A DNA stretch of 64,000 bases from Podarcis liolepis (Eukaryota): NCBI GenBank assembly GCA_965112155.1, contig OZ218100.1; one strand, written 5' to 3'. The notes below the pieces were generated by a model. The model saw only the letters and a program-made list of their open reading frames with translations. It was not told the origin of the DNA and searched no databases. Made by a program: the position numbers and the translations under genes. The first letter of the stretch is position 1. Each line of letters starts with the position of its first letter. Below are positions 6,674 to 61,907 of the stretch, in pieces.

Positions 6674-6681
6674 CACACACA

Positions 6682-6730: not shown

Positions 6731-6732
<2 letters not shown>

Positions 6733-17892: not shown

Positions 17893-17989
17893 GTCTATGC
17901 CTATGTGTATTTAGGCTAGTGAAAATGACTTCAGTTGTTATTACTATATATGTTATCAAAGAAAGTAAGCATCGCTCATTAGCTGAGAG

Positions 17990-22850: not shown

Positions 22851-22854
22851 ATAC

Positions 22855-22988: not shown

Positions 22989-23211
22989 CTCTGTATCTTT
23001 CTATCTGGCTCTTGAGACTTTTCCCGCGTCACAGAGCCTCCCAAGCTAAACTCACCAGCCCTGCTCCTTGAGAGCTTTTGTCTGGCTGGACTGTGTCTTT
23101 GAACTCTAATAATGTTTCTTGCTCTCTTGGGTGGAGGATAGAGAGGGTTTTGTGAGTATATTTAGGAACTAGCCTACGTAACAAAGGTAAAATTCACATT
23201 CATTTCCATTG

Positions 23212-23313
23212 TTCTGTCTGGACGCTGAGGTCCAGCGCCGAGGGCCTTCTGGCGGTTCCCTCATTGCGAGAAGCAAAGCTACAGGGAACCAGGCAGAGGG
23301 CCTTCTTGGTAGT
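23212..23313 (+). mobile_element. Isolated internal L2 fragment (~100 bp)
   Basis: Aligns without gaps to the reverse complement of ~20801-20902 (roughly 85-90% by eye); no 3' tail. Confidence 0.85.
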
Positions 23314-24430
23314 TGATGATGACAATTGTGGCCCTGCAATATCTGATACAGGTTCCCAATCTATCTTCTAAGAGGTGTAGGGTGGGGTTTGCCCCAAAGG
23401 CAGGACTGGAAAAAGAAATCCATGAGCTTCATAACACAAAAAGAATACACCTGTTGTTGTTTAAAAAGTACAAGTTTGATTTCTCAAGGTGATTTGTATT
23501 GCACAACTATTTCAGGATTTTGATATCACACATGGCAAACCAGAGTGAAAGAAGATAAGAGTTGCTTATTGGGAATATGACGATTGACAGCAGAGCCATT
23601 TATTTTCAGTAGCATGGGAAATTAAAAAAGCTACATGCAATTGAATGTTGTTGGTGTTATTAAATATTTTTCCTAACTATAAAATAATGACTGCTGGCAT
23701 CACCACTTTTATCTCATTTAATTACTACAGGATGCACTGCATCACCTAACCTGAGATCACTGAAAAATGGAGTGTGTGGAATTCAGAAAGATTATGCTAA
23801 ATACAGTCTTGTCATCATCAATGCTGGGTAGCAGAGAATAACCTTTCACTCTCTGGTGCTATACAAGAACTTAATAAGACCTCAAAATAAACATAGTGGG
23901 TTGTGATCAGTGCTAGCCCTACTCAGAGTAGATCCATCACAATCAGTGGACATGACTAAAGGACTAAGGCAGGTTCATTAATTTCAATGTGTGTACTCTG
24001 AATTGGGCTTAGCCGAATACAATTCAATAGGTTTTTATTTGGTTCTGTAACCATCATTATAGCTGTATATTTATAGTCCTTATCACTGACCCAAACCGTT
24101 GGTGTTCCACAGTTTCATTCTGAGATATCACATAGGGCTATTTTAGTCTTTTCCCAAGGAATCTTATTGACAAGCAGTTTTTGATCTTTGTTACAGTTGT
24201 ATGGACAAAGCTATCTACTGTCGTCCCATGATATAGGTTATTGATGGATCATCTGGGAACAACATTGTTCTAACAGTGCATCTACTTAATCCAAAACTAA
24301 CCAAAAACAGGTGGAAAAGGAGCTGCATGCCATTGTTGTAACTCTGGATATGTAAGCTCCTGAATCCAACCAGCATTATGAGTCTTCTCTTTGATATGTC
24401 TTCCTTCTAATTTTGATTTATTTATATTTG

Positions 24431-25191
24431 TTGCCAAAGCCCTTTCCGCCGCCCTTGCAGCGGAGAGGGTGTTGTGGGCAGGAGATCCTCCCACATTCGC
24501 GGGGGCTTCCCTTGCCCCCGCGAGACTTGGGGGAATCCCCGGGCATGTTGGCAACCCAGCCCGCCAATGGGTGGGCGGGGGAGGCGTGGCCCAGGCTATT
24601 TAGGCCCAGGCACGCCCGGGGACCGCCCTCTTTCCCCCTTCACCAGCTGGAGAGCGGGTTTTTCCCATCCCACCCACCCTTAGATTAGCTAGACTTGGCC
24701 TTGCTATGGACTCCGGTTGGTCGCCGCAAGGGGCCTGGTAGGAATTTTTCCAAGTTGGCGCAATTCCTGCCTTTTGGTTTTTTCGCCTACCTCGTAGCAA
24801 TCGTCACAACTTTCTCGGTATTGGCGGTTAGGCACTGGCATGGGGCTATGTTAGACAAATGGAGGGGGGAAGGAAGCGCCATCACCTTCCCCCAATGTGA
24901 AGGGGTAGTCCGGTAGAGGACTCCGGGGGGCGTGGCCTTGTCTGAAGCCTTGCGAGCACGCCCCCGAGCGGTGACACCCGTGGGATCCTAGTTGGCATAC
25001 TTCAACAGGACTCCCGCGGTTCGTGTTCAACCCTTCCCGGTCACCATGCCGGGTAGTCTATAGGAGCCAATGCCTAAGGCCAATACCTTCAATTTCCGTA
25101 ATCAATAAAGTTGTGGCCTTTTATGCCCAATTAACCTTATATCATTGTGTCCGTGTCTTCATTTCATTGGGGGAGGTAACTTGCCACGCAA
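24431..25191 (+). mobile_element. GC/CpG-rich LTR-like solo repeat with TTGC...GCAA termini (possibly DIRS/Ngaro-type tyrosine-recombinase retroelement repeat)
   Basis: Sharp GC boundary; AATAAAGTTGTGGCC at 25104-25118; ends CACGCAA; TTG on both flanks; shares ordered motifs with 31003-31840. Confidence 0.7.
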
Positions 25192-25642
25192 TTGATAATA
25201 GACAAGGTTGGATATATGTTCTAATTTGTACTGAATTCAATGAAAGTCCAAGGAATTATGGACAAATCTCTCTTTCTTTTGGGATGAAAAACAAAATATC
25301 AACGAGACTCTATCTTGCAAATCAAGCCAATTCCTTCATGATGTTATAATTGAAGTTGGAGATTCACATGTATGAGAGAGAGGAGAATGAGGGAACATAA
25401 GGTTGACTCTGGGACCTTCTGCATGCAAAGTATGTACTCTGTCACTGAGCTGCAGCCCTTCTCCATGTATTCTCCTCAAATGTACCCCCTCTCATGTGGA
25501 TGAACACCATCACCTAAGGTGATAAACAACATGATAGCCAGTGTAGCATAATAGTGTGTTCCACTAGGACCAAGAGATCAGAGTTCAAATTTCCACTTAG
25601 CCATGAACTTAGCCAAGATTAAGGAGTGATCTTGGGCAACTT

Positions 25643-28093
25643 TTTATTATTATTATTCACTTTAACACACCAAAAAAGAAAAAGACATTTATCGGTATAC
25701 ATCAACACAATACAAAAAGAAAAATAATGAACCAAATAATAAGCACATAATGTTAAAATAAAGATGTTCTTTTTCTATAGACCAGACTTCCCGTCCGCTC
25801 CTTACTTCAATTATTCATCATTAATTTGCTGCCAGTACATAACAAGTTATTATTATAATTTAGTAAGTTTTAATCTATCTTAAGTCTTACATTATACTGG
25901 AAACTGCTACTGAAATTATTCAAAAGCTGCAACAGACTTTAAACTACAATAATTATTTTTCAAATAAATTTTGAAGACTTCCCATCTTGATTTTTTCTTG
26001 ATTTTTTCAGACAAGCTGTCTAGTTCCGCGTATTCAGCCAATTTTTGAATCCATTCTAGTCTTGAGGGGACTTTATCACTCTTTCAATTTGACACAATAA
26101 GAACTCTTGCTGCGACTGTGGCCTATAAAAATATATCTCTTACCTTTTTGGGAATGTCTGAATCTGTAATTCCCAAAAGGAAAGCTTCTGCTATTTTTAT
26201 TAAAGGGGATTTTTAATATTTTTTCTAGCTCTAAATGGATATCCTCCCCAAACACCTTAATTTCTTTACACTGCCACCACACATGGTATAGAGTACCTGG
26301 CTTTTCTTTACCTCTCCAGCAATTGCTTGGGATGCTTTTATACATTTTAGAAAGTTTCCAAGGGGTTAAATACCACCAATGTTGCATACCACAGTCTTTA
26401 TTGCATATGTACAAGAAACACCTACAGTTCAGGATTACATGTCCGAACCCGTTGAGTCAGATTCAGGGAGTGGCTTCCTTCAATTCCCGCACCAGCAAAG
26501 TAGATGTGGGAATCATGCAAGACATCTTTGATCCTTACGTTTCACTTCCCTCCTTGTCTGTGCTGAAGCCCCCTGCCTTCCAGAGTCTGAGCTCCCTTCC
26601 CGAGCTTCTGGGCGATTGAAGGGCTCCACAGAATCCCTGAGCCCTTCCTCCTCCTGGCAAATCTCCACCCTCTCTTCTACTTTCTCTACCTCTGGGTGGT
26701 TGAAGGGCTCCACAGCATCCCTGAGCCCCTGCTCCACCTCTTCTGTCACTTGCTCCTCCGAATTCTCCCTGACACCAAGGCACTTTGGGCTCAAACAAAT
26801 TTTTGTTTTTCCCCCAGACCGCAAATAACAATTTCCTGACAATATGGTTTGAGAAATTTCTATGAACTTTAGCTTTCCCATAAACTAAATGCACGTTCCA
26901 TCCCCATCAGTTATCAAAACCCTCCAAGTCTAAGAGGGCCAGGTCTTGCAACGTACACCACTCCTTTAACCAGGTGAAGCAGGCTGCCTCATAATATAAT
27001 TTCAGATCAGGCAGGGAAAAGCCTCCTCTGTCTTTTATATCAATTAAAATTAGATGTTTAATTCTGGGTCTTTTCCCTTGCCATAAAAATTTGGAAATGT
27101 CTTTTTGCCAATTCTTGAGACAGCCCGCTCCACCCAGTATCAGAATCATTTGAAATAAAAATATTTGTTTGGGAAGCACGTTCATATTTATAATGGAAAT
27201 CCTGCCCAGAAACGAAAGCTTCAACCTACTCCAAATCTCAAGATTCCTTTTAATCTCTAACCAAGTTTTCATATAATTGTCCTGGAATAAATTTATATTT
27301 TGGGGGGTAATCCATATGCCTAAATACTTTGCTTTGTGGCATATCTTCAGGCCCAATGTTTTTTCTAAATCTTCCTTCTCCTGTGCTGGTACATTTTTGA
27401 CCAGCAGTTTTGTTTTAGTGATGTTCAGTTTGAAACCTGCCACTTCTCCAAAGTTTTTGATCAATTCTAACACTCTCATCAAACTTTCTTTAGGATTTTC
27501 GGTCATAATAAGTAGGTCATCGGTGAATGCCTTGAGTTTGTATGCTTTATTCCCCAGAGTAATACCTCTGACAAGCTGGTCTTCTCATATCCTGGTATTC
27601 AGGACCTCCATCACTAGAATAAATATCAGTGGTGATTTTCACCAAGTCCAATTTCTTGTATTAATTTTTTCATAAACTTCCAGGAGATGTTATCAAATGC
27701 CTTTTCAGCATCGACCAGCATAATAGCTGCTGGTTTATCAGCTTTATAATTGAAGTATTCTAATGCATTGATCACACATCTGAGATTGGTTTGCATATAA
27801 CGTCCTGGGAGGAACCCGGTTTGATCTTTGTAGATTATTTCTTTCAGAACTGTTTTCAGCTTGTTTGCAATGATGTCAGCAAAAATCTTATAATCGTTAT
27901 TTAACAGGGTGATAGGCCTATAGTTTGCAGTAATTAAGGCTCTGTTCCCTGTTTATGGATGAGGGTGATGAAACTTTCCACAAATTCGGTAGCATTCCAT
28001 TTGTGAGAATATCATTCATTATATCTTTCATATGTAAGAATAGTGATTCTTCTAATTTTTTTTGTAATAAATAGCTGGGAAACCATCAGGACC
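25643..28093 (-). mobile_element. L1 LINE, 5'-truncated and decayed, ORF2 from GPDG through RT to the C-terminus, plus 3' UTR
   Basis: ORF 26907-27506 (FGEVAGFKLNITKT..KYLGIWIT..LSFLGRISIINMNVLPK..FLWQGKRPRI..GGFSLPDLKLYYEA); ORF 26076-26414 (WYLTP..CWR..GTLYHVWWQC); 16-bp TSD TGATCTTG(G/A)GCAACTT at 25627-25642 / 28094-28109. Confidence 0.95.
26430..26774 (-). mobile_element. Partial LTR-like insert inside the L1
   Basis: GC-rich non-L1 block starting TGTCAGG on the minus strand at 26774; internal 29-bp direct repeat TTGAAGGGCTCCACAG(A/C)ATCCCTGAGCCC at 26616 and 26700; left boundary approximate. Confidence 0.6.
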
Positions 28094-28899
28094 TGATCTT
28101 GAGCAACTTAGACTACAATCCTATACAGAACTAGTGAGCTCACAGAACAGGGAATTTCGGACATTGACCCTGTACTTTTGGAACTCTATACAAGATAAGA
28201 TCTGGATGGATCCATTCCTAGTTCCATTCCCTCCTGCATGGCATCTCTGTGAAGTTCATGGAGAAGCACACTTTTGTTTATGCACTAAAGCACAAGTAAC
28301 AGAAATGTGAAAAGCTTCTATATCCAGAGATCATTAGGAGGAGGGGAGGGGGGAAGGATAGCATCTTTGATGGTCCCAAGTAATATAACTCATGCGATCC
28401 ATTTGTCAGTTCTTTACTCCAGAACAGAAGACCTCTGAAGGCACTTATCAGCAAATGATATATTTTTAATTTTTATTATGCCTTATGTTTTACTGCAGGG
28501 AAAGTCAAAAGCACGGGGATTCATTTGCATTACTAAGTGACTTACAGGAAAGCATGTCTGAATATTTCATAAACAAGATATAGGAATTCCAATTCATAAA
28601 AGATGAACTCTTCAAACTGCGACATACTTCTATGAAAAAGACTTTGCAAAATTCTACCCAACAGCATATGCAGCTATCTATGCCCAATAAATAATGAAGT
28701 ACATTCATAATGGCTTAAAATGTAGTAAAGTATAGGATTTATCACTCAATATTTTCATTGCTCTGATCAGTCTGCAACACCTCTAAAATCCTATTTGAGG
28801 AAATAACTTTTCTTAAGTCCCCATGCTGATAATTTTCATACAAGCTAATGAATAAAATAGGAGCCCTGTGATTATATGAGCTGACATAATACAACTGCT

Positions 28900-29055
28900 T
28901 GGCATTTATATAGCATATTTAAAGTGTTCAGAGAACTTTCGAATACATTGTGTCAGTAATCCTTACAATAATCCTGTGAGAAGCCAATATTATTTTCTCC
29001 ATGTCGCTGATAACAGGCCGAGGCTGAATGAACTATAACTTGCCTGAGGTCACTT
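28900..29055 (-). mobile_element. MIR/CORE SINE remnant
   Basis: AATCCTTACAATAATCCTGTGAG...TATTATTTTCTCCAT...GAGGCT...ACTTGCCTGAGGTCAC, typical CORE domain. Confidence 0.65.
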
Positions 29056-30023
29056 GCAGCAAACACTAGAAGTCAGTCCCCTTGACTTCAGTGGGATTTA
29101 CCACTTAGGACTAGAGGGGGAAAGGTACCATAGGCCTCCTGCATAGCTTTCCCAAGAAGACAGTTTCAAGGGTAGGGGCAATTTCAATTAGGAAAATGGT
29201 ATGAATGGAGAAGGTATGAATGGAGAAGGTAAAGTCACCTCTAGAAGCTTCAATCTGCTTAGGTCTCATTCGAGTTCTGCCATTATCGGCTAGTTTTTTT
29301 AAAAAAACATGGGAAATCCTCATGACTAATCTCTCACGGCACATTAGGTTGTATCACTGAACCCATGTGTGGTGGGTGTACATGCAAACATGCACACATT
29401 TGCTTCGGCTACTGTGTTTCTTTGCATGCGAGAGACCTTAACTTGCAGTGAAAGGCCATCTGATTCATTATCTATGAGCTACAATTTTGTATGAAACCAG
29501 TTAACCCTGAGAGAAAGAGAGAGTTTGCGGTCCTGGGCAAAATGAAAGCTACTGCACAAGGCAAATGAGTCATTTCGGAGATCAAGAAAAAGATACAATG
29601 TTGATGTGTGAAAAGAAAGCCGTGGGATTTGATCTGGTAGGCCTGAGTGTCTATAAATTTTGTTACCCTTCTCTTATGAAGTTTTTCAGCTAGGGAGTTT
29701 TGTGGAGTCCGTGCAGTAACTACCCATAGGCATGTAATCTCTCAAATTTGTACAGTATCTCTTCATGTTTCTTCCATGAGTGGAGCAAAATGTTAAGTAT
29801 TGCCATCCTGTGTGCATGATAAATCCCAGTCACTCAGAATCTTATTTGATTAGAAGCTGACTTCACTCCATGACTGCATTCTCAGCAACTCTGTCTCTTT
29901 GTGTGGCTGGGGGAAGTTCTGCCTATTCCTCTCCACAATTCAGCCCATGCCATTGGCAGGCACAGGAATGTTACACTCTCATCTGTATGTTACTGAAGCT
30001 GTTGGTACAATATATGTCCAGTG

Positions 30024-30226
30024 CAGGGCTAGCCCACCCATGAGACAAGGTGAAACGACCACCTCAGGCAGTAGACTCCAGAAGAGCAGCAAGTTCCGAT
30101 GTAGATTTTTCTGTGTGACCCCCCCTCTTGTTCCTGATGTAGATTTTCATTTACTCCTTCCCTGGAGGGAAAGGGGGCACCATTTTGGGGTCTACCTTAG
30201 CTGCCCAAATGCTTGGGCTGGCTCTG
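30024..30226. mobile_element. hAT-type MITE
   Basis: Imperfect TIRs CAGGGCTAGCCCA / TGGGCTGGCTCTG; TSD only 5/8. Confidence 0.6.
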
Positions 30227-30421
30227 ATGCCGTGTATGGGCTAGTTACAAAAATACTGTTTTGTTTTACTTCAATGCAGCTATCATTCATCACGACTGCT
30301 CTACCACCACAAAAGTTTGAATTTCCATGTATTCAGACTAAGGATTTGCGAGGAATTCAATTCAGTTCTCATTTAAAGGCAAACTTACCAAATTCTCCCT
30401 TTTCAAAACAATATGCAAGCC

Positions 30422-30620
30422 CAGAGCCGTCTTTCCTATTGGGCTTACTGGCACGTTGCGCCAGGGCGTTGATCTCTCAGGGGCACCCCGGCTTCCTCCC
30501 CAAGCCTCCGCAGAAGAGCAATCCCCACAGAGGCTTGGGGAAAGGTCGACAACTCTGGGAAAGAGGGGGCGCCGGAGGGATCTTTGAACCATGGCACCAG
30601 ATATGCTTAAGATGGCCCTG
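30422..30620. mobile_element. GC-rich hAT MITE (nested)
   Basis: TIR CAGAGCCGTCTT / AAGATGGCCCTG; TSD TGCAAGCC / TGCAAACT (6/8). Confidence 0.7.
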
Positions 30621-31002
30621 TGCAAACTGAAGCAGACAGCCGTCCTTCAAAATTCACATTTCTCCCAATTTCGCAATGCAGTTCTGCAGCCAAGTAATGT
30701 GCACAAAACTGTGTATACTAGGGCAAAGTTACCGCTCACTCAGTGAAGCAGTGGGCGGGGTTTGCAACCTGATATGTGCTTCCCATGCTAGGGTGACACC
30801 CTCTTTGGTTGCTGGCTGTTGCTCCTCCCCTCTCCCCGGCTACCCAATCAGCTGCCGGCTGGGGGGTGGAGCAAAGACCAGGTAATGCAGGCTCCAGCCG
30901 AAAGTCTGCCTAAAAATGCACACAGTAGTAAAAATAGCATACCAAAAACTCATTATATTAAGGGGAAATGTATGCAAAATGTGTATATTAATCAAAGCTA
31001 CA

Positions 31003-31840
31003 TTACAATGAGCACTCACTCTTTGCTCTGTCGGTGCACTTTGCTGGATTGTGTGTGGTGCTTCAGACCTGGGGAACTTTCCAGTTTGTATGGGCTGGCC
31101 TGCCCCTCAGTGTTATTCTGTGGAGGCTCACACCCAGCCTCAATAGTCAAGTTACACTGCTGGGAGGTGAGGCCAGTCATATAAATAGGGGGTGGAGCCA
31201 GCAGCAACCAGGCAGTCAGCTCAGGAGCTTCACCCACCCAGCCCTCCCTTTGTTTAATGTTTCTTGTTTGCAGGTTAACTTATTCTTCCTATTTAGTGGG
31301 CACTGCTACAGTTTTTGGACTGGTTGCTGTTGAAGAACCAGGAAGAAAATTTCCTAAATTTCCTGCATTGGCAGATTTTGTCTTCCTCATAGCAATTCGT
31401 CACATCTTTGGCGGTTTAAGGCCTTGGGAAGAATCCTTTAGTCTTTTCTTTCTTGAAATTGGGGGGGGGCATGAAGTGATGACTCACCTCCTCCCCCACA
31501 GCAACGATTCCAGGGTCCCCTCTTAAAGGGGTTTGTAAATGGGTGTCTCTGGCCATACACTGAAAGGTTGTCAATGAAATACCCTGCGTGCGGGGAAATG
31601 GGGTGGGCTGCCTGCGTACACATAAGTCTTGCAGAGCACCCCCATTTACCTTGAGGAGCCCCAGTTCCCCCGGCTGGGGGGCTGGGAGGGATACACGCCC
31701 AATGCCTAAGCCAAGGTCTTCTACATTTGAAAGTTTAATAAAGTTGTGGCCAAATTTTAATCCATATCACGTGGTCATGTGTCATTATTACTTGCTGGTG
31801 GTCCATTGGGGGCTGGGGCGGTCGCCGCCTGGTCACGCAA
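31003..31840 (+). mobile_element. Second, more diverged LTR-like repeat ending CACGCAA
   Basis: TATAAATA 31180-31187, CCAATGCCTAAGCCAA 31699-31714, AATAAAGTTGTGGCC 31737-31751, terminal CACGCAA; left boundary approximate. Confidence 0.65.
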
Positions 31841-32955
31841 ATATATTTATCAGGAGAAATTTGCACTAAAATGATGACACATTTTCTTGGTTGTGGAAGT
31901 GTAAAGAACTGAATTTAAGACTGAAAAACAATGAAATTTGGTAAATCATATCTGATAGATTTGTCCATCTCAATTGCAGACCATGGTTTTACAACATGGA
32001 TGGTGGCAGCGTTACTCATACATAAATTGTCCAAGGAGCATCTTTCGGTAGTTCTATGTTGTAAAGTAGGTGTACACTAGAAAGCTTGTTTGTAACAGCA
32101 TCACACTTAACTCAGCCTCAGGTAATTTCATTGTCCTTGGAGCCCTAAGCAGAAAAGAAAAAGAGGAGGTTTATTGAGCCTCATTCATGTGCCTAAGCTT
32201 CATTCATCTTGGGAAGCCTGCCTAAAAAAAACCTGTATTTGTTCAATTGTTTTTAAAAAATATGTGCCCTGTCTCACTTGCAAAATAAATCCAAGGCAAC
32301 AAACAAATCAAGGAAAGCAAAAATAAAAAATATTAACATAACACTAATGAGCAATACCAAGGGACAGCAGTCAAAAATGAAAAAGCTTTCAAATCAAACA
32401 AGGGAAAATATTCAACAGCATACCTTTTTAAATAACCAAGCTTGTAGTAATCTCCTAAAACAGTAAAGAGATCAGGTCTAGTGAAACTCAACTGGCAGAT
32501 CATCCCATAGGGTGGGGAAAAGCTCTGTTTTTAATAGCAACCAGCAGCCAACCGGGCCTCACAGGAGCAATGAATAATACAACGAACAATCTTCTCCCGT
32601 CTCTGAAAATATATGAAATTTTGGTGTTCCCATGCCGAAACACATTGGTTTGAATTCCTGTGAATCAGAGTCTTAGATATACTGGTAGTTAAGGGACTAC
32701 TGGCTTTGGTTGAAGGATAAAATCTAAAATGAAAGCAGTAATTTTGTCTGATTCTGACAGAGCCTACAAAGCTTTTAACAATGAAAGCCTATGCTCGTCT
32801 ACGCAGAAGTAAATCCCACAGGCTTACTCCCAGGTAAGTGGTTACAGGAGTGTAGCCCAAGAATAATAGTTCAAGAGGAAACATATTTAGATTTTTTTAA
32901 AAATGCCTGTTCTTCACTCTTCTGCAGACACTCCCCCCACAGTTCAGCAAACAAG

Positions 32956-33018
<63 letters not shown>

Positions 33019-33020
33019 TC
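32956..33020. repeat. (CTTT)n microsatellite
   Basis: Pure tetranucleotide run. Confidence 0.95.
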
Positions 33021-33359
33021 CATTCCTGTGTCACTGGAACTCATAAGGAACACTCTGGGGAAGTGGCATATGCCTAAGTCAAGTAGCTCTTCTGCATAAA
33101 GGATACTGGCAGTGACCATTTCTGGAAAGGTCTAGGGCAGCTACTCAGCAGTCATTCTTCTTAGACGCCAGGAAGGCTAAGGGCATGACTCCAGCCAAAG
33201 CTAAGTACTTTTCATCTTATTAGCTTCATCGGGAGAAAGTTAAGCACATTCCATTGAAACCAATGGGAGTCAAAAGTACTTAACCTTGTCCAGCTTGTGA
33301 CCTAACTTTCCAGCGAAGGATGTGTATGTATGTGTGTGTGTGTGAATTGTTCATTTTGT

Positions 33360-33731
33360 TTACCCTTCAACATTTCTCTGATGAAAATAGGGACATTCTA
33401 TTCAATAATAAATAAATAAATAAATAAATAAATAAATTATGTCCCACCCATTTGACTGGGTTGCCCCATCCACTCTGGGCGGCTTCCAACATGTATACAA
33501 ACATAACAAAGCATTAAAACATTAAAAAAAAACTTCCTTATACAGGGCTGCCTTCAGATGTTTTCTAAAGGTTGTATAGTTACATATCTCCTTGGCTCTG
33601 GAGTCTCATAACTCCATACTCTCCAACATTTCTCCAGTGAAAATAGGAGCATTCTGGGATCAAATAAAAAGCCAGGAGGGCTTTTGTAAATCCGGCACTG
33701 TCCCTGGAAAATAGGGACACTTGAAGGTCTG
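33360..33731. mobile_element. Composite non-autonomous DNA-transposon-like repeat carrying an L2 3' tail
   Basis: CAACATTTCTC..TGAAAATAGG repeated at ~33368 and ~33624; AAAATAGGGACA near both ends; 33405-33570 resembles the L2 3' end at 20615-20740. Confidence 0.6.
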
Positions 33732-34084
33732 TGTTCATTTGCCTTTCCCAGCAACAAGGAAAGGAACTGATATAAGATCAATAGTTGCTGTAACCAAGCT
33801 CAGATCCACACCAAACATTTAAATCACTCTTATGTCTCTTTCACAGTCATGGCTTCCTCCAAAGTACCCAGAAACTGTGGGTGGAATTCAACATTGCACT
33901 CTTTCCAGTTGTTCTGTCTGCACAAGCATTGCAGCTTCTCAGATGGAACAATTATCCCCCTCTTCCTCCAGCATGCTGCTCTGCAGTTTCTCCTCATGGG
34001 TGTCAGGACACTCTCAAGTGCCAGGTTTGTGACACTCAGTGTATGGTGTGGTTGTGGCCTAAGTTGTATCTGTAGTTGTATCTA

Positions 34085-49552: not shown

Positions 49553-50613
49553 TGGTAAGTCCCAGGTAAGTGTGTAGCTTCAGTCACTTAGCTGTGACAC
49601 TATGCTTTCAGGTGGGTTCCCAGACCCCACTTCTAGATAGAAGTATCCTATTAATGCATGACATTATAGACTTGTTCCTATCCCCGTTAAAAGAATGAAA
49701 CATGTGGAAGATATGGAGATATGACAAATATCTGTGAAATCATGTTCACCATCTCACCATAGTATTGAATACTATTCTTTGGTCTCTGGATTTTCAAGCA
49801 AGCACTGAACATTTGTCAGATTACGCTCCTATGAATGGTAGCTAAATACTTTGCTCCACCAAACAATATGTCAGCGTAAATATGTGCAATTTATTACTGA
49901 CATACATGTCAAGCAATTTGTGGTTTTTTTGGGCAATGGGCACAGAAGAGAAAGCTCAGGATGGTCTGCTTTTTTCAAAGCATGCTGGAACTGCAAGAAA
50001 TAGAATGTAATCAAATTCTCATTTCCTAATCAAGTCTGACTGGAAGCCAAGAGAAATCAGCCATAGCTGCAATAGCAATAATCACATTCTAAGTGAGCTG
50101 TTGAATTTAGCAAGATTAGTAATATAGAGTCTGAAGGGATCAAGAGGCCAGTGTTCAGCCTCCTACTGCGAGGCAGGACAATCTATCCCTCAGCCCTGCC
50201 ACAGATCAGTCAAATGACCTGTCAAATGTGATATGGACCAGTCTATTGTACAGAGGGAATAAGTGCAGAGGTGCACTCTCTAAAAGTTGCCAGCGGGACA
50301 ATTAACTCAGCTGAAACATGTGCAGAATAACACTACAGATGTTTACTGAGAAATAAGACCTAGTGAATTCAATAGAGCTTACTTCCAGCAGTAGGTTATG
50401 TATAGGACTGTAGCCTGTACTGTTGTGCTTTCATTATTGAGGCTCTTATGTTCTGAACATCATCATCAAAAATGGTTCTGTGGCATCCACAGCCTTGATC
50501 CAGAGGCAATTATGTACAAAAGGCAGTGGCACATGATATGAAAGGTATTTCTGCTTTTGCTGTAAAGCATTATGTGCACTGGCACTGAAAAAAAATGCCT
50601 TGTTCTTGGCTAC

Positions 50614-51398
50614 TGATACGGAACGGAAGGGGGGGGGGCTCCTTTCCCCCTTCCTTCTAGGAACATCCGAGGCCCCGCTTATTCCTATGGCCCCGCTTTA
50701 GCCAATCACAGACCTCCTGTTACAATGTATCCATTCTGTTTCTGCTTTTGCCCTATAGTACAGAATGGGTTTGAAATCATTGAAATCTTTAAAAATTGAT
50801 ATAAAATCAACCGTAACTCCAATTTCTTCGCTCTCAGTGTCATTCAACTCAGTTCCCCGTGGGCTCCATAATGCTATCCCTACTTCCATAATCCTCGAAG
50901 CGGCAGGTCACGTACGCAGGAACTTCTTAATTTGCCAAACCTTCCCTCTAGGCAATATTAGGTGGCAGACGATGCATATCTCTGACCCATTGTCTTGCCA
51001 CCACCGGTACTCAATAAATGTGTATCTATGTATATTTCCCGCTCCGCATATCCCCCCTCCCTCATCCGAAAATGCTAATTAATGTAATCCCACCTTTTCA
51101 TAATGTATTCATGACGTGTAAAGTATATTCATGATGTAACTTGTGAAACCCAACCTTCCCATAATGTATTCGTGACGTTTCATGCACTGTATTCTGGGAT
51201 ATGGAGGGAAATTTCAAAAGTTCATGTCACCCCTTTCTCTGGGTTCAATCTCGCCTTGAACCTGTTGCGCAATAAACTTGGATCTTCTGCAGTTTGCTCC
51301 TGCGTCCGGCTGAGCTCATTTTCTTCCGCAGGGACCCACGGACTTAGTCCGATGAGCTGGGTGGCAGAGTAACACTGCACCCAGATTTTTCCGTAACA
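50614..51398 (+). repeat. 5' LTR (785 bp)
   Basis: TGATACGGAA...TTCCGTAACA inverted termini (9/10), AATAAA 51271-51276. Confidence 0.97.
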
Positions 51399-51400
51399 GT

Positions 51401-51419
51401 TGGCGCCGCAACGTGGGGC
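51401..51419 (+). promoter_or_regulatory. Primer-binding site for tRNA-Lys(CUU) (Lys1,2)
   Basis: TGGCGCCGCAACGTGGGGC is the canonical TGGCGCCCAACGTGGGGC with one extra G, 2 nt after the LTR. Confidence 0.93.
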
Positions 51420-51611
51420 TTGCGGTTCTCCCGAGCTGCTGACTGGGGGCCCCGAAATCTTCAGCCGGCTCCGGGCCATTTTGCCTGGGAAGATCCTTTT
51501 GGACCCCCAGCCATCTTCTGGGCGGTAATCGAAAGCCCTAGGAGTTCAGCCGGGGAGCAAAAGAGGGATCCAGCCGGCTTATTCATCGATCCCGGGATCA
51601 TCATAGAAGAC

Positions 51612-51620
51612 GCGTGAGTA
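51612..51620 (+). promoter_or_regulatory. Candidate major splice donor in the leader
   Basis: GC|GTGAGTA about 200 nt downstream of the PBS, the usual position in retroviral leaders. Confidence 0.55.
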
Positions 51621-53620
51621 TAAGGAAAAAGGAAAATCCAGTGCACTGGTGGGAAGGGGGTGGAATCTCCTGGCAACTGAATTCTCTGCCCTCCTCTCTA
51701 TCGCTCCTTCTTGCCTTTCTCTTGGTCCGGTTAGTGAGAGAGACCGTGGACCGCTGCTCAACCCGAAAGGGGGGTTCTGAGCTCTATCTCTTTTCCTTAA
51801 AATCTCCAGCCAGCCGCACCAATTGGGAGCCCGAAAGTAAGACGGTGAGACCCGGCTTGGAAAGACAGCCGACTCTCCGCAACGGGCATCTCAGTTGAAA
51901 GCAAGGGGTTGGAGCTCTCTTTCCGAACTTCTCTAGCGCCCGGCAAGGGGGCGGGAAGTGGTCTTGCTTTCTATCCCAATCCCAGCCGCACTGGTCGGTA
52001 ACACGTGTATCGTGCGTGAGCCCGCTTCCAAAAGCAAGGGGGATTTTCAGTTCGAAATTCTATCCAGGGATCACCCGATCTGGCACCGCATGGCGCGGGC
52101 GTCCAGTAGGGCCCCTTTTCCTGAGATGTGACGATAGGTAGGAGGTTGCCAGGAGGGATAGCCCATGAGGAATTGGGCAGGACCGGCAGAGTGGAAAGAG
52201 ACCCCAGGTTATAGGAAATAAGGAAATAGGAAAGGGAACGCAAGGAACCGGATAGCTAGAGCTCTCTAAAACCCACTAAGGAAGTTGCCAGGCAACTAGA
52301 AGCCCCTTCTCCTCTTTACTATACGTCCCTGTACTAAGCATACCAAACCCCTAGACATACCAATCCTAATCAACCCCTCTCTTTCCCCCTTCTCTATCCC
52401 AGACACCCCCCCCCCAAAAAAAAGAAGGAAAAAGCAAAAAAGCAACAACAGCAACGCATGCATCTATAAAGGGGTATCCAGTCGACCAAGCGTTATGAGC
52501 CCTACCAGTTTGATTAACTGGTGGTGTGTTTGAAGAGGCAAGGAGGCTCATAAAACCATGTGGGACCTTCCTACTAATTTCACTTAATGAAGCCAGAGGT
52601 AGTGGCCCAACTCCTTGCAATAACCAACTAAAGGATGAGAATATATCTGTTTATATGTTACATGTTGTCTGTTATGTGTGTTGTCTGTTAATACATATAT
52701 GAGAATATGTATGTTTACATGTTGTCTGTTATGTGTGTTGTCTGTTCCTTCTGTCTCTGGCAGACTGCTTTTCTTAAGTGTGCATAGTTTAAACTGCAAG
52801 CTTGCTTCAAAATTTAAATCTAAGGAAGCCATGCTGGATCTTAGCAGTCCTAAATAAGACAAGATGAGAATGAAGTGTGCAAATGTTTACCCCACCTCTT
52901 GCTTTGCCCCAACTTTTGAGATTGTGAGTCTACAGTCTTATTTTGGAAGGTGATGATAACCTAATGTTTCTGCTGCAAAAGCCTAGTTGAGCACAACTGC
53001 TCGCTCAAGCTAAAATGCAGTGTATGTATTTCATTAAGCGTATGCCCATAAAAGTATGGTGTTCATTCTAAGAAAAAATATTTGAGTCCAGTTTTAACTT
53101 TGATCTGGTTGGACAGAAGAGTTATTGTAAGGCTCCTGATATCAGTCTCTATAAGACGTCCTGGCCTCTTTTCTTAGAAAATGCCCCCCCCCCCCTTGTT
53201 TCATTCTGCCTCTTTCAGGTTTTTTTTTTCCTTCTTATTCTGTGCCAGGTAAATTTACTCCCGAGTAAGCTTCCTTTAAAGGAAACTGCAAAGGTGGGGG
53301 GGGGGCATAGATTAGGCTTACTATTCCTCTGCAAGTTCAGGAAAAATTGTCACTTTTGTATTCCTTTTAAATCAAATCTATGGCTGTTTTAACTATGCTT
53401 TATAAGAGATCCTCTACCTATCTTAGGAAAAATGTTCACTTCAGTCTTTAAAGATAATTTATCTAGGAACTTTCACTCTTTAGTCTAAGGAAGTAAACAC
53501 TCACTCAAACTAGCTTCAAGATCTGCTAAAAGGGTTGGGTACTTTTATTTTCCTCTTCCTTAGTACATGATAGGCGCATGGCTTGTGGTCTCTTCCCCAG
53601 TTGTGTCTGTGTACATAAGT

Positions 53621-53904
53621 ATGTGTGTGTTTCTGGTAGTACAAATCTTGCTATGAACCCTGTATTTTAGGGTTGGACTAGATGACCCCAGGTCCCTTTC
53701 AACTTTCCCAATTTGTGGCTGATGAGTTGAAATCCAGCCCAGATTTGCTCTTTGTTTTTAAAGGTGAGAGGTGAATGTGTGTGTTTCTGGTAGTACAAAT
53801 CTTGCTATGAACCCTGTATTTTAGGGTTGGACTAGATGACCCCAGGTCCCTTTCAACTTTCCCAATTTGTAGCTGATGTGTTGAAATTCAGCCCAGATTT
53901 GCTC
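53621..53904 (+). repeat. Two ~130-bp direct repeats (154-bp period), each with a CR1-type 3' tail motif
   Basis: Copies 53621-53750 and 53775-53904; GGGTTGGACTAGATGACCCCAGGTCCCTTTCAACT at 53670 and 53824. Confidence 0.9.
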
Positions 53905-54113
53905 ATGATGTTTGAAACAGAACTGGTGATATCAGGCATTTGAGTGATTACAGTATTTATCATTTTGTCTACTATTAAAAAAAAAAAATCAAACTTAAAA
54001 GTCTATTAAAAGTTTAAGCACATAAAAATTCATATAGTTAAGTAGAATTAGCCTTGACCATGACTGAGAATGTTAAAAAAAACTAAATAAAAAATCCTAT
54101 GAATTCTAACTCT

Positions 54114-54496
54114 CTGGCCATTTTTACTCATAAATAAGAGAGCGGTTGATTGTTCCGCGAATGGCCAGAGGGATATTAGCCCTTTCCTGTACATAAAGGA
54201 AGCAGACTCCTTTGCTTGGGCTGAATGGTGAATACTTGAATTGCTGAGTTTCTCTTTTTTGTTTTAAAATCTAACCCTATTTTAAAAATCTACTCCTTAC
54301 CTGGCCATTTTTACTCATAAATAAGAGAGCGGTTGATTGTTCCGCGAATGACCAGATAAAATGACCAATAATGATAGCCCTTTCCTGTACATAAAGGAAG
54401 CACTCCTTTGCTTGGGCTGAATGGTGAATACTTGAATTGCTGAGTTTCTCTTTTTTGTTTTAAAATCTAACCCTATTTTTAAAATCTACTCCTTAC
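54114..54496 (+). repeat. ~187-bp tandem duplication
   Basis: CTGGCCATTTTTACTCATAAATAAGAGAGCGG...AATCTACTCCTTAC at 54114-54300 and 54301-54496. Confidence 0.92.
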
Positions 54497-54888
54497 CTTT
54501 CCCTTCCTTATTCTAATTGAGCCAAAAGATGCAACATTTTCAATGGTATAAAAGGTTTGCTGAGGCATGAACTCTGCACATGCACAGAGGCTAGATCAGC
54601 TTACAAAAGAGAGAGAGAGAGAGAGAAAGGAGGGGGGGGGAGAGAGAAGGTTTGGAGAGCCTGAAACCTATACAAATTTCCTTATGTAAAACCTTGAACC
54701 ATTGAGGGAAATCACCCTTAATGTGTTTTGCTCCAGGGCTACTTAAGACAATAAAGTTAAGTACTGGACATGCCAAATTCTTTTCACAGGTAAATATCAA
54801 AGCACTCCCACTGTGAGTTCCTCTCTTGAGTAGTTCCCCCCCCCCATGGGATTTAAATTTTATAAGTTTTTTTTTTTTTTGTGTGTGT

Positions 54889-55043
54889 GTGTGTATATGC
54901 CTATGCATTTAGGAACAGCATTTCCTGACAAACCTCTCACATGAAAATTTTTTCCCTTTCAACAGGTGTGTATATGCCTATACATTTTAGGAACAGCATT
55001 TCCTGACAGACCTCTCACATGAAATAATTTTCCTTTTTAACAG
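54889..55043 (+). repeat. ~77-bp tandem duplication, each unit ending in a pyrimidine tract plus AACAG
   Basis: GTGTGTATATGCCTAT..AGGAACAGCATTTCCTGACA..AACAG twice. Confidence 0.88.
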
Positions 55044-56024
55044 AGTGTCCTTTCTTTTCTCCCACAGCACAAATGATAATGAGGGGATGCAAACAGTGAT
55101 TTAAATACTCTATAAAAAGTAATTGCATTTGTTTTTCTTTTGTCTTTCTTCCCTTAAAGCCAAACAGTCACTTTCTTTCTGTTCAGCAAAACAAGTCTGA
55201 ATCCCTGCTATATTAGTTGATTTCCTTCTATCTCTTTGTGGCTTTGACATTTTTTTTTAGGTTACAAATAATCTGTTTTCGTTTATCAAGTTCGTTTTAT
55301 TAGTTCTTCCATTATATATATGAAATTAATCGAAGCACAACCAAACATTGTTTGTGGAATGGTATTTGTTTACCTTTGGCCTGAGCATTTCTTACTAATT
55401 CTGTCATTTTGGCTAGTGCAAGGTACCTGCACAACTTTAAATTGCCATTCATTTTTATTGGTATTAACTCATTTCCCAGTATTCCGCTATTAACATTACA
55501 GCTGATGTCACATCAAGAAACACTTTTATTTTCATTTGGGATGTTAGAATGCCAAAACAGATTACTTCAGGTTACTTATTAATGGTGTGTCTTAGCATTT
55601 ATTTATTTTTGATTCCTCATAGCTCATTTTGTGTGTGTGTGTTCTACTTTAGGGACATGTTCATCACATGCTGAAAGTCAGTTTCATGAAGTTCTTTTAT
55701 CAGATAGCACATGGTGAATTTTAAGTTTTTCCCCATTGTTTTCCCATTTTTTTCAGTCTAGTAGTAATCTGCGTGGTTTTGATAATATATTTAATAATAA
55801 TTCTTTTCTAAATCTGATGTCCTTGTGTCAAGTTTGTTTTCATCTGACTGGTAATCTAATTTTTTGCTTTCTTTTGTATTTTTTAACCTTTGTATTTTTT
55901 ACAGTTCTCTTTCTATACATGTGGAGTAATTTTATTTTATAATATGAAAAGAACAACAACAAAAACTAAGTGAAGGAAAGCAAACAAACTTAGCAGATAA
56001 TAACAGTAATTATGTGGAAATGTG

Positions 56025-56110
56025 ATAATAAATAATAATAAATAATTTTATTTATATCCTGCCCTCCCCAGCCGAAGCTGGGCTCAGGGCGGCTAACAAC
56101 AATCAAAATA
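56025..56110 (-). mobile_element. L2-type LINE/SINE 3'-tail fragment inside the LTR element
   Basis: (AAT)n then TTTATTTATATCCTGCCCT...CTCAGGGCGGCTAACA, same tail architecture as 20615-20660 and 49330-49376. Confidence 0.7.
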
Positions 56111-57603
56111 GTCCAATAATGATAATGAATAAAATGTTTAATCCACTAAGATTGTTATTATTTGCAGCTTCCCATGGAAACTGGAGGACATCCTTTTTGC
56201 CTTTTGCCCCTTCCTTGTCTGTGTCTTTAAGTCTCCCCAAAAACCCTGCCCCCTTACAGGATATCACTTCTACAGATGTGCAATGATGAAAAGGAGCAAC
56301 AACCCCTCAGTTCTTCGCCATCACAAGACCAGCAACACCAGAGTTTTCAAAGTGCCCACAGCTATCTCTTTCAAAGGATATAGACTGAGGGGGGAGTGGG
56401 GCTGACAAAGGGGGGGAGGAGTTGAACTGACAAAGGGGGGAGGAGTTGAATTGCAAGGACATTTTCTCACTTTTGAAACTCAAGCCTCTGTGCTCCAGGA
56501 TTCAAAAGATACATACGTAAAAGATCACAATTGTGTCAAGATATGCAACAGATATTTAATTATTTTGTTTTGTATTATGTGTTATTATGTAAGAATGTTG
56601 AAATGTGTCTGACAGTGTGATTTCCACAAAGGGGGGCAATTTATTGTGTGTAATTGTTTTTATGTTTTATGTCTTATTGCTTACACACCAATGGAGAATT
56701 CTCATGCATTTTATACTTTCTAATAGCTCACACTATTGTGTAGTCCAATGTTTAGATAACCACAATTCGTTGTCCCACCTGGCACTATGCCAACCTTCCC
56801 TACCCATTTTAAAAAATGTGCTAAAACTTGCTTTACCAAGGAGAAGCTTCTAAGAAACATGAAGGTGGATATGCTTTGGTTTAGCAGGAATGATTTCTTA
56901 TAGACTTAAATTGACTTATTTGGACAACTGCCCTTGTTAAGAATGGTTTTCTTTTAACAGATTGGTTTGAAGAGTTGAGAACCATGGGGCAAGATAAATT
57001 CAAATTGGACTCAGTTTGAATTGGGCAAGTGTATCCAGGCTGCAATTAGCCTTTTGGTCCTTTAAGTGCAAGTGAGCAACCCCCATGCGTGCAAAACCAC
57101 AGCCTATAATAGAATCCCATAGCTAAAGGCCAAGGCGAAGACCTCTCCCTCACGAGATGCCCAAACCTGTGCCAGCTATGGTGAATGCCAGGCGACATGG
57201 TTAAATGAAAGCCCTGAGGGGATTCAACAGACAGGATGTGTTGCTGTAGCACTATGTCAGTGTGAGACCACAGAAGAGCTACCTTGACACCTGAGAACAC
57301 ACAAATGGCGGGGGGGGGGAGCCAACTGCATTTTTCAGTCAATTAGACCTTCCTGCTAGGTGTAAAGCATAAAACACTATTGAGAATGCCACAACTAATT
57401 TAGCAACAAAATACAAGAGGTGTTCTTTATATAATACCCTATATGCAGCTACCTGCACTGCTATACTTGCAAATGACCGTAAGAGGCATGGCTTGCAAGT
57501 CCCTTTCAGGTTTGCATAAAGCCACACATCCCATTCACCGAGATTTAGGGTGCGGAGAAAAGATTTGCAAGTTCTTACAGAACTTTAATGCAAATCTATC
57601 TCC

Positions 57604-57614
57604 GAATGGGGGAC
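57604..57614 (+). promoter_or_regulatory. Short polypurine-tract-like sequence
   Basis: GAATGGGGGAC directly before the TG of the 3' LTR. Confidence 0.6.
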
Positions 57615-58397
57615 TGATACGGAACGGAAGGGGGGGGCTCCTTTCCCCCTTCCTTCTAGGAACATCCGAGGCCCCGCTTATTCCTATGGCCCCGCTTTAG
57701 CCAATCACAGACCTCCTGTTACAATGTATCCATTCTGTTTCTGCTTTTGCCCTATAGTACAGAATGGGTTTGAAATCATTGAAATCTTTAAAAATTGATA
57801 TAAAATCAACCGTAACTCCAATTTCTTCGCTCTCAGTGTCATTCAACTCAGTTCCCCGTGGGCTCCATAATGCTATCCCTACTTCCATAATCCCCGAAGC
57901 GGCAGGTCACGTACGCAGGAACTTCTTAATTTGCCAAACCTTCCCTCTAGGCAATATTAGGTGGCAGACGATGCATATCTCTGACCCATTGTCTTGCCAC
58001 CACCGGTACTCAATAAATGTGTATCTATGTATATTTCCCGCTCCGCATATCCCCCCTCCCTCATCCGAAAATGCTAATTAATGTAATCCCACCTTTTCAT
58101 AATGTATTCATGACGTGTAAAGTATATTCATGATGTAACTTGTGAAACCCAACCTTCCCATAATGTATTCGTGACGTTTCATGCACTGTATTCTGGGATA
58201 TGGAGGGAAATTTCAAAAGTTCATGTCACCCCTTTCTCTGGGTTCAATCTCGCCTTGAACCTGTTGCGCAATAAACTTGGATCTTCTGCAGTTTGCTCCT
58301 GCGTCCGGCTGAGCTCATTTTCTTCCGCAGGGACCCACGGACTTAGTCCGATGAGCTGGGTGGCAGAGTAACACTGCACCCAGATTTTTCCGTAACA
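57615..58397 (+). repeat. 3' LTR (783 bp)
   Basis: Matches the 5' LTR by eye except G8 vs G10 near the start and C57894 vs T50895. Confidence 0.97.
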
Positions 58398-61300
58398 GCT
58401 ACATTAGGAGTAAAGTGTTCAGATAAAGGTTATCGGTGGTGGAGGCAGGAATATATATGTGTGTGTACAATACCCATTAAAGGCCCAGCTCATAGCTGTA
58501 TATCTTGAATAAAGTGGAAAGGCGTGTGGGCCATGCCACAGCACCTCAGACCCTGTGTGAGATGGGGGGAAACTCTACATCTGCTTACAGAACTGTCATC
58601 AATGGGAGCCCATGTGTATGCGGGGCTTTGGAATGCAACCAAGTTTACTTTGAAGTGCCACAAATTAAGTCTAACATAATTTGAGATATCACACAACAAA
58701 ACACACTCTCAGGGGGGAAATTAGTTGGCTCGATAACACCATATAGCTTTCTTCGAGAACCAAATTTGCTGCATAACTAATTGGCAAATTAGCAAGTTAT
58801 CAGCTCTGGGTTTGGGAGGAAAGGGGAAGTAAAAGAACAGACAGAGATTACATGGAAGTCTTTTATTATAGGCTCCTTACAGAAGTTATCAGTAAAAGGT
58901 ATTAAACATTCACCACACTAATTATTGAATGTAATTCAGAGCCAGTTGGGGTTAGAAGAACTGGAAAAGTGATACAGCTGAAAACTCAGTAGACCACCTT
59001 CATATTCTGCTCTAGTTATGATTTCACAAACAAGCCAGCACTTTTAGATTTTAAAAAGAAGAAAAACAATATGCAGTTGATGTTATTTTCATCAGAAAAA
59101 AACAGTAAGTGCAAGGAATATGCAGAATAATCATTATTATTAAATAAAATTTGGCATCATATTTTTGTATTAGAGAAAAGCAGAGATGTAATTTGCAATA
59201 AATAAGGATTCACAAGTTTTACTGCAATCAGCTTCACATTTACTTTTATTTTAATCCAGTCATCTCAGAATTATGTCCACCAATTGGGCAGAAGCTTTGG
59301 AGTGGAGACTTGTCTCTTAGGATCAAACCATTCCACACTGCAGGCTTCGGTGAGATTTTTATTCACTTTCTACATATAGAAACCAAAGCTGATAATTAGG
59401 GACTTTTCCAGGCCATCCAGAAAGGACATTGGCAAGTTAATATTTTACTGATCTCCTAAATCATTCCTTTGAATTGGGTGGGTTATATTTACATTGTTGC
59501 TGTTACATTAAATGTGGGGTGGCATGAGTATTCAAAAATGTAAGGCTAAAAAAAGCAACCCTCTCGCACCAACATGCGTGCTTCATTTGGAATTGGATCC
59601 AGACCTATCTGGATTTGGCTTGAAATGGGGTTCCCTTTCCACCTCACCCATCCTCTGTTCAAAAAATACTACTACTACTACTACTAATAATAATAATAAA
59701 ATGCACCCTTACCTTTCTGGTAGTGGAAGAGCTCAACAGTCTTGACTGAGTGATCAAATCCGCAGCCTGAACATGCTTAGGAACCTTACTGCAAGCTATG
59801 AAGCTGGTCAGTTGGGCAGGCAGACTGGTTACTCAGCCTGAAAAGGGCAAACAAACCATCCATCCCTGGATGGTTTGTTTTCCTGACACACACAAGTATA
59901 TTATTGTGAAGGAGAAAGAAACTGGCAAAGGGGTGTGTGTGCAAAATTCTGATGGATAGCTTTTGAGGTAAGCAAGAAGTTCTTAAATTATAAACTATGG
60001 AGAGCATGTATAATTGAAAAAGCAAGAGAGGGCACATCTTCAAAAAGTGAAGGGGGAGATAAACATGGAGAGAGTATTTTAGAAAATTATACCATCTCAT
60101 GTCTTGAGAGTCCTGGACTCACTCGTATGTGCCCTGAAAGTCTAGGATTTTGTCCTAATGCAGATTTCACCAAGTTGGTGCTCACCAGATGTTTTTGACT
60201 ACAACTTCCATCATCTCTCACCATTGGCTGTGCTGGTTGGGGCTGATGGAAGTTGTAGTCCAAAACATCTGGAGGGCCCCAGTTTTGTAAAAGTATCACA
60301 GGATCCCCTCTAATGTCCATACCTGTTACTGTGAGTTCAAAATTTATGAATTGCTATTTGTCGCAGAACGCCTCTTTAAGACTATTTGGTGTGCATTGGC
60401 AAGCTTCTCTGTTTAAAAGTGAGGTATTTCATTTTACCAGGGTCCCTTCATGGTCTCAAGTTCTTCACTTCTGTTGGGCTTATTTCAGAAAAGTATAGGT
60501 GAAAAATACAGTTTTCACCACTTCGTGAGCAGAAATCCCCAAGAGTCTTATTCATTTGAAATATAATATGCACAGAAAGAGTATGAAATGAAGTCTCAGT
60601 GTGTGAACTCTCAGTGTTACACTCACCTTGCCACCACCACACACACATACACACAAACTCTTCCTCATCTTTTATCTGCATGGTACATTCCTGATCCAAG
60701 AGAGGATTTGTAGTGCAATTAATGAACATTAATAGAAACATTAGCAAATGCCAAAACTGTTTCTCCTTGACTTGGTAACAGCAATTCACATCACACAAAA
60801 CGCAGGAAAACAATAAAAGATTATAAAGATTATATAACAGGATAGAAAGATGGGCCCTGATTGTATTTTTCTAAAACTTTAAGGCTTTTAGAAGGTTTAT
60901 TCTGACCTTTACATGCATATTTAACTATTCTTTATATAATGCTGCAATTATTGTGCAGTCTAAGTAGATTATCATTTGTTTATATTTGAGATTATAGGGG
61001 GTTTTGTCACATTTTAAAAAATGTAATACTGGCGGTTTATGAATCAGCATTTCTGTCACCCTGTTCCAGTTTTTTGAGAAGTAGCTACAAATATTACCTC
61101 AATGCTTGGACAGATATATATGACCTTGGGGAAATTAACTGATCAAAGCCCAGTTTTCACAATATTCATCTCATCCTTATTAGATTTACATGGTGGATCT
61201 CTTCTTTGGCTATTTATGGGAAAACATGAGGCCAAGTCTAAATGGAAGGCCGAATCTAAATAAATCTTGGGGAATAGGAGACAGGAATTCAAGTCCCACC

Positions 61301-61693: not shown

Positions 61694-61907
61694 TGATGCC
61701 CAACATGGGGCTCAAACCCATGACCCCGAGATTAAGAGTCTCATGCTCTACCACAGGCTTCCTCAACCTCGGCCCTCCAGATGTTTCTGGCCTACAACTC
61801 CCATGACCCCTAGCTAGAAGGACCAGTGGTCAGAGATGATGGGAATCAAAACGTCTCAAAACATCTGGAGGGGCAAGGTTGAGGAAGCCTGCTCTACCGA
61901 CTGAGCT
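61694..61907 (-). pseudogene. tRNA-Lys(CUU) pseudogene/retrocopy interrupted by a MITE
   Basis: Removing 61754-61891 and one TSD copy gives, on the minus strand, AGCTCAGTCGGTAGAGCATGAGACTCTTAATCTCGGGGTCATGGGTTTGAGCCCCATGTTGGGCATCA, matching vertebrate tRNA-Lys-CTT with mostly CpG-type changes. Confidence 0.88.
61754..61891. mobile_element. Palindromic hAT-type MITE
   Basis: TIR CAGGCTTCCTCAACCT / AGGTTGAGGAAGCCTG; TSD CTCTACCA / CTCTACCG. Confidence 0.92.

Follow-up and report, generated by a model that had tools for sequence, protein, structure and literature searches.

The leaders whose structure is known belong to a small number of retroviruses from mammals and birds. In MPMV, FIV and HIV-1/2 (the U5-gag pairing), and in MMTV (the extended LRI III'-IV), a strand in U5 and a distant partner close a domain that contains the primer binding site (PBS), with a GC-rich palindrome, purine runs and a splice donor nearby (PMC5874298; PMC11449360). 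Packaging depends on these U5 long-range pairings in MPMV, MMTV and FIV (PMC5874298; PMC11449360), and in lentiviruses they expose or hide the dimer palindrome (PMC5874298; PMC11449360; PMC1865047); in MPMV, disruption of the long-range pairings alters dimerisation only modestly (PMC5874298). The switches of HIV-1 (LDI/BMH, U5:DIS/U5:AUG) and FIV are each built on two exclusive folds, one of which hides the dimer palindrome and the other of which exposes it. A helix of this general kind is predicted in the leader of the locus described here; the prediction itself stands, and the helix probably has a function.

The locus is an LTR retroelement provirus (Table 1) within a 64,000-nucleotide stretch of Podarcis liolepis DNA (contig OZ218100.1), the whole of which is referred to as the window. 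The two LTRs differ by one substitution and a 2-nt gap, and are thus 99.6% alike. The 6.2-kb interior has no open reading frame of 130 amino acids or more, and a scan of all six frames of the element for traces of gag, pol and env returned no Pfam family, so that the coding sequence expected of an autonomous ERV was not found; in Rfam there were four matches, every one of them far under the gathering score. Since the interior has no coding capacity, the element is, judged by its sequence, a recently inserted and non-autonomous one in need of a helper. A run search found at least 20 runs, from six organisms, that contain the stretch or part of it, with no RNA run among those listed.

Several features of the element and its surroundings were recorded alongside. 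Between 52400 and 57612 the interior is CpG-poor (observed/expected 0.18, vs. 0.58-0.81 in the LTR and leader) and is possibly captured host DNA; it also contains several tracts that resemble splice acceptors, as well as internal duplications (53621-53916, 54114-54505, and 54889-55048). In the 5' LTR, a GC-box/CCAAT/TATA set occurs within 50672-50830, and 51076-51178 contains two repeats with a 61-bp spacing, each with a CRE-like hexamer, which are likely enhancer repeats, and of which one unit has been gained or lost in relatives. Elsewhere in the window, open frames that appear to be LINE reverse-transcriptase fragments, together with a 138-bp element whose inverted ends measure 33 nt, occupy 20964-21458, 22345-22830, 26907-27584, and 61754-61891. 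The repeat types of the window are suggestive of a squamate. The PBS is presumably of the tRNA-Lys type, as opposed to the Ser PBS of class III; no tRNA gene was found in the window. Despite the young age of this copy, its PBS has an extra base at 51408 that is absent from many relatives, being omitted at 1080 of 1614 depth in run X13 and at 219 of 784 in run X9. A 5-bp target duplication is not exclusive to class III. The class III (ERV-L-like) element XtERV-S resembles the present one in its 5-bp target duplication, its LTR, which measures 700-800 bp and has ACA as its last letters, its CAAT and TATA boxes, and a hexamer near the LTR end (PMC8278194), while the LTR here starts with TGA where the TGT...ACA termini of class III have TGT. 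Because the element is without coding sequence, and so has no RT, these likenesses do not fix its ERV class.

Table 1. Positions of the features of the element and its leader within the window, with the basis on which each was assigned.
Feature	Position	Strand	Basis or remark
LTR retroelement provirus	50614-58397	+	TG...CA LTR ends, target site duplication, PBS, PPT
Target site duplication, 5 bp	5' copy 50609-50613; 3' copy 58398-58402	+ (5' copy)	
5' LTR, 785 bp	50614-51398	+	TG...CA termini
Probable cap site (~51242) and 8-bp hairpin at start of R	51241-51263	+	12 tagged reads, X21; hairpin p 0.9-0.96
Poly(A) hexamer AATAAA	51271-51276	+	Predicted unpaired when long-range helix is formed
Long-range helix, 5' strand	51278-51317	+	51279-51284 in R; 51293-51300 and 51306-51317 in U5
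Cleavage site, R/U5 border	51290-51291	+	X23 read ends at 51291 and depth collapse
Local-helix partner strand	51364-51379	+	Pairs with 51288-51303 in RNA that lacks the leader or ends short of it (LTR-only folds, p 0.9-0.98)
Primer binding site (PBS)	51401-51419	+	Starts 2 nt past 5' LTR
GC-rich 8-nt palindrome, candidate dimerisation initiation site	51463-51470	+	Exact single-stranded bulge in long-range fold; unpaired 0.87-0.93
Long-range helix, 3' (leader) strand	51542-51573	+	
Second palindrome copy	51572-51579	+	Pairs with first copy if U5 arm is unavailable
12-nt palindrome, alternative dimer contact	51588-51599	+	Just 5' of splice donor; about half unpaired
Candidate major splice donor	51614-51621	+	Motif; 338 nt past hexamer
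Purine run	51622-51636	+	Directly 3' of candidate donor
Non-coding interior with internal duplications	51622-57603	+	ORF, Pfam and repeat analysis
Short polypurine tract (PPT)	57604-57612	+	Ends 2 nt ahead of 3' LTR
3' LTR, 783 bp	57615-58397	+	

The helix is formed by three consecutive pairs of segments on the two sides of the PBS, as an earlier, sequence-only reading of this DNA had noticed, and its pairings were confirmed: 51279-51284 with 51567-51572, 51293-51300 with 51554-51561, and 51306-51317 with 51542-51553, the last with a single G-U. The outer segment can be extended to 51278-51288/51564-51573, for a total of 26-30 bp. Folding of 51230-51650 retained the helix with pair probabilities of 0.82-0.99, and the range was 0.83-0.99 over nine folds of varied length at 25-42 C, either unconstrained or with the PBS blocked. 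For 51200-51700 the single MFE structure is a different fold, although its ensemble still has the helices at 0.91-0.96. A 7-mer occurs three times in the leader (51462, 51547, and 51571), and the two copies outside the helix pair with the U5 arm at a probability of at most 0.06. The partner strand is absent downstream of the 3' LTR, and the helix closes the PBS domain in the predicted folds; its specificity for the 5' end and its likeness to known U5 long-range interactions, both part of the earlier reading, thus stand.

The predicted helix shares with MPMV, FIV, HIV-1/2, and MMTV the enclosure of the PBS by a U5 strand and a distant partner, and the neighboring palindrome, purine run, and donor, yet it differs from these systems in several respects. 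It is longer, at 26-30 bp in three segments, than the 7-11 bp of FIV and MMTV (PMC5874298; PMC11449360). Its partner lies in the leader, 5' of the donor, in an element without gag, whereas the partner in MPMV, FIV, and HIV overlaps the start of gag, an arrangement to which MMTV is also a described exception (PMC11449360). Finally, the outer segment of this helix, which is a predicted one, reaches into R, between the hexamer and the cleavage site, unlike the pairings of MPMV, FIV, HIV, and MMTV.

In the long-range fold, a GC-rich single-stranded palindrome is predicted between the PBS and the splice donor, the configuration expected of a dimer site, although it takes the form of a one-sided 8-nt bulge, while most described dimer sites are apical loops (PMC5874298). 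When the U5 arm was blocked, the two palindrome copies paired with each other at a probability of 0.95 (otherwise 0.00-0.06), and the exposure of 51463-51470 fell to 0.03; the two copies likewise paired when the local helix was forced, a conformer 6.9 kcal/mol worse than the long-range fold. With the leader arm blocked instead, 51463-51470 was unpaired at 0.35-0.39. Among 600 shuffles, an exposed GC-rich 8-nt palindrome occurred once, any exposed 8-nt palindrome in 15, and six or more 8-nt palindromes in two, these statistics having been picked after the fold had been seen. The predicted behavior is similar to the HIV-1 and FIV switches in having two exclusive folds, with the palindrome hidden or exposed, but here the hidden state consists of two identical palindromes paired intramolecularly, together with the local U5 helix, and exposure belongs to the long-range state, which is also the predicted ground state and has the palindrome as a bulge.

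Evidence for conservation was sought among relatives of this copy. Among the variants listed (40 of 294), none lies in the helix arms, which proves little, and no two-sided compensatory change was seen; of the indels, 12 of 66 were listed. A pattern scan of metagenomes for homologous leaders gave 19 hits, all of them chance matches of 18-30 nt, and a scan of viral contigs gave none. One diverged copy in RNA run X23 (70 and 88 reads, antisense, probably from one locus) is gapless over 51293-51317 and keeps 16 of 20 arm letters compared with one of five bulge letters (by eye; Fisher p 0.023). Its changes at 51313-51314 each face U in the partner strand of this window, so that 19 of the 20 arm positions could still pair, although the leader of that copy itself was unseen. 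The changes that it carries at 51370 and 51372 preserve the local helix as well, and the conservation of 51293-51300 is therefore not specific to the long-range partner; the diverged copy speaks for a structure here without singling out the long-range helix. In the same run, about 100 reads over 51248-51409 derive from an antisense transcript that starts in the flank of a diverged LTR copy and runs into it. Contig depth in X13 is 17,000-34,000 over 51194-51409 and 1,300-7,900 elsewhere (depth being no measure of copy number), which suggests that the R-U5 block is common to more diverged families.

The RNA ends were examined in reads from relatives. Four runs were aligned to 50600-52200 at 80% likeness, and the two RNA runs among them, picked by species label, both come from one related organism; of the aligned reads, 354 of the 443 from X23 and 125 of the 243 from X21 are less than 90% alike, and the evidence accordingly concerns relatives rather than this copy. 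In X23, with the first mate taken as antisense, sense depth stands at 58.8 and 35.2 as far as 51301, beyond which it drops to 1.04. Five molecules end at 51291, where the depth beside is 25, at a CA that lies 15 nt past the hexamer and is not followed by an A-run. The AATAAA that precedes the helix is thus a poly(A) signal in actual use, as the sequence-only reading had presumed. The other AATAAA, at 51013-51018, was provisionally set aside as a used signal, as no pile-up of ends occurs there among the loose ends listed (24 of 169); were it used at the 3' end it would remove R.

At the other end, 12 reads in X21 carry the Smart-seq3 5' tag before 51241, and their UMI-position letters are unlike the upstream DNA; both the tag and the signature of strand invasion are described in PMC9546772. 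These 12 reads, from one library of another organism, place the probable cap such that R would be about 50 nt long, with some 30 nt between cap and hexamer, and they may derive equally from full-length copies or solo LTRs, which are indistinguishable here. The CCAAT (50702) and TATA (50800) motifs of the LTR predict a start near 50830, contrary to the tagged reads. A further 25 tagged reads near a G-run at 51655 were rejected as a start, because the letters after the tag resemble the local G-rich DNA, which is the strand-invasion signature (PMC9546772). Plus-strand coverage in X21, with 21 reads at 51340-51353 and three at 51370, fits reads that start at the tag and cross 51291 uncut, so the 5' signal is read through in these relatives. 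No joint for splicing from 51613 was found among those listed within 50600-52200, where depth is 2-9. The sequence just 5' of the hexamer (51265-51270) can pair with the donor (51612-51617) at probabilities of 0.0-0.88 depending on fold length, and in these models such pairing could tune U1 access.

One rival reading gives the complementarity no selected function at all. A duplex energy of -46.2 kcal/mol was equalled by five of 500 shuffled leaders, one of 500 shuffled U5 arms, and one of 418 stretches of 201 nt taken elsewhere in the window, and by 10 of 200 double shuffles in which any R-U5 window was allowed; the gapped complementarity score was equalled by seven of 5000 shuffles of R-U5 against the leader and by 94 of 2997 of the whole LTR against 1 kb. 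The helix therefore beats chance modestly, with p about 0.001-0.05, and 0.03-0.05 once the search space is widened. The whole domain has z = -2.1 (1/100 shuffles) and the reverse strand, which folds as well as the sense strand, has z = -2.7, so that z alone is no sign of strand-specific function. The widened shuffles would be consistent with a by-product of a GC-rich leader in which a 7-mer is thrice repeated, as would the fold of the reverse strand, the lack of covariation in hand and the random 3' flank of this copy, where 58405-58414 pairs over 10 bp with the same U5 stretch (58292-58301; p 0.98), so that the 3' LTR has by chance something like the leader helix. The targeted shuffles, the rarity of palindrome exposure, and the arm-over-bulge conservation of the diverged copy point the other way, as does the generality of such pairings in retroviral leaders (PMC11449360), and we regard a by-product without function as doubtful. 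Given a function, the helix could serve mainly as a scaffold for the initiation of reverse transcription, in the manner of a U5-leader stem or an extended PBS stem, and exposure of the palindrome would then be incidental. The U5-leader stem of ASLV is a precedent for such a role. The helix encloses the PBS and is unaltered when the PBS is blocked as if by tRNA, and the corresponding stem of HIV-1 both influences initiation and covers the primer activation signal (PMC1865047). The present helix starts, however, 84 nt 5' of the PBS, the 17 nt directly before the PBS are unpaired in the fold, and the palindrome arrangement would be left unexplained; this is the least probable of the roles considered.

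The role first proposed for the helix was suppression of polyadenylation at the 5' LTR: it was to cover the region just after AATAAA, masking the cleavage site and downstream element, while leaving the 3' LTR site free. The modelled folds mostly do not support this, and for the hexamer and cleavage site the predicted contrast between the two ends is the opposite of the one claimed. With the helix formed, the hexamer is unpaired at 0.98 and the cleavage site at 0.99, as the cleavage dinucleotide falls outside the helix in an internal loop, whereas in LTR-only RNA the values are 0.62 and 0.00. Placing 60 random flanks on the LTR gave means of 0.62 for the hexamer and 0.08 for the cleavage site, with two of the 60 leaving the cleavage site more than half open, and the element's own 3' flank gave 0.26 for the cleavage site. 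This low accessibility without the leader arises because the local helix 51288-51303/51364-51379 forms, which holds in the folds up to the emergence of the leader strand near 51560, and is lost when the fold begins at 50830; the family-majority letter at 51376 would set a mismatch opposite the cleavage A. Within the putative downstream element, the folds favour the claim in one portion, 51293-51317, which goes from 0.14-0.31 to 0.01 unpaired with a rise in opening cost from 12.2 to 19.0 kcal/mol, while the U-rich run 51318-51326 is more open with the helix (0.77 vs. 0.58). An extension of the helix over the hexamer, by pairing with 51579-51583, was also rejected (maximum 0.30; 0.01-0.08 at eight of nine transcript lengths), and the hexamer is unpaired at 0.72-0.99 across nine lengths, unlike the HIV-1 polyA hairpin type.

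In its tenable form, masking would thus mean that the helix hides a CstF-binding downstream element within 51293-51317, possibly succeeding the earlier local helix. The signal is a real one that is read through from the probable cap, and Pol II transcribes at 1-4 kb/min. The partner would be complete about 270 nt past the cleavage site, and assembly of the 3'-end complex takes about 10 s (PMC5546720), which makes the timing borderline; the polyA domain of HIV-1 does have a long-distance pairing (PMC1865047). The suppressors that have been documented are, however, different ones, namely closeness of the signal to the cap, enhancers in U3, binding of U1 to a donor further downstream, and weak sites (PMC12789967; PMC3694450), and the parts for two of them are present here, in the probable cap proximity and the donor-like site at 51614. 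HIV-1, foamy virus, and MLV are similar to this element in having a hexamer in R at both RNA ends, a downstream donor, and a cap-proximal signal; HIV-1 combines a polyA hairpin with U1 at a donor 195 nt downstream, in contrast to the 338 nt and the absence of a hexamer-enclosing hairpin here, foamy virus relies on U1 plus structure, and MLV on a weak site. The sources consulted on these three viruses describe no long-range mask of a downstream element, and the literature searched, which covered few subscription papers, offered no description of this family or of a U5-leader helix that masks a downstream element. Read-through at the 5' end is better explained by cap proximity and the splice donor at 51614 than by the helix, and masking is an unlikely principal role. 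Similarly unlikely, in our estimation, is a co-transcriptional two-state switch, in which the local U5 helix would bury the cleavage site until the leader takes the U5 strand, hides the downstream element, and frees the palindrome, so that 5' poly(A) escape and competence for dimerisation and packaging would be one folding event.

We consider it somewhat probable (roughly 0.55) that the helix is a U5 long-range interaction that serves as a scaffold for dimerisation and packaging. By analogy, the order of PBS, palindrome, purine run, and donor, with the U5 pairing, matches the packaging leaders of MPMV, MMTV, FIV, and HIV, and because the element is a recent non-coding insertion, its packaging signals must have been retained. 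In this reading the helix is the long-range interaction at the base of the 5' leader in a retrovirus-like element that is not autonomous, and it would form after the leader has been transcribed to about 51560, displacing the local U5 helix. It would close the domain that holds the PBS and keep the leader stem in the register that leaves 51463-51470 single-stranded, and the exposed palindrome may then let two RNAs kiss and be packaged by the Gag of the helper; in the absence of the helix, the two palindrome copies would pair together and be hidden. That the 5' poly(A) signal is read through would come mainly from its closeness to the cap (~30 nt), perhaps aided by U1 at 51614, with the helix adding at most a late occlusion of 51293-51317.

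With this finding, the combination of a U5 long-range interaction and a switchable palindrome would be extended to a reptilian element that is young and encodes no protein. If the helix did mask the downstream element, it would be an additional mechanism for suppression of poly(A) at the 5' LTR, although the evidence leans away from this. The leader of an element that encodes nothing is under no coding constraint, and with many natural copies across at least six organisms, covariation in this family could cleanly test the purpose of such helices.
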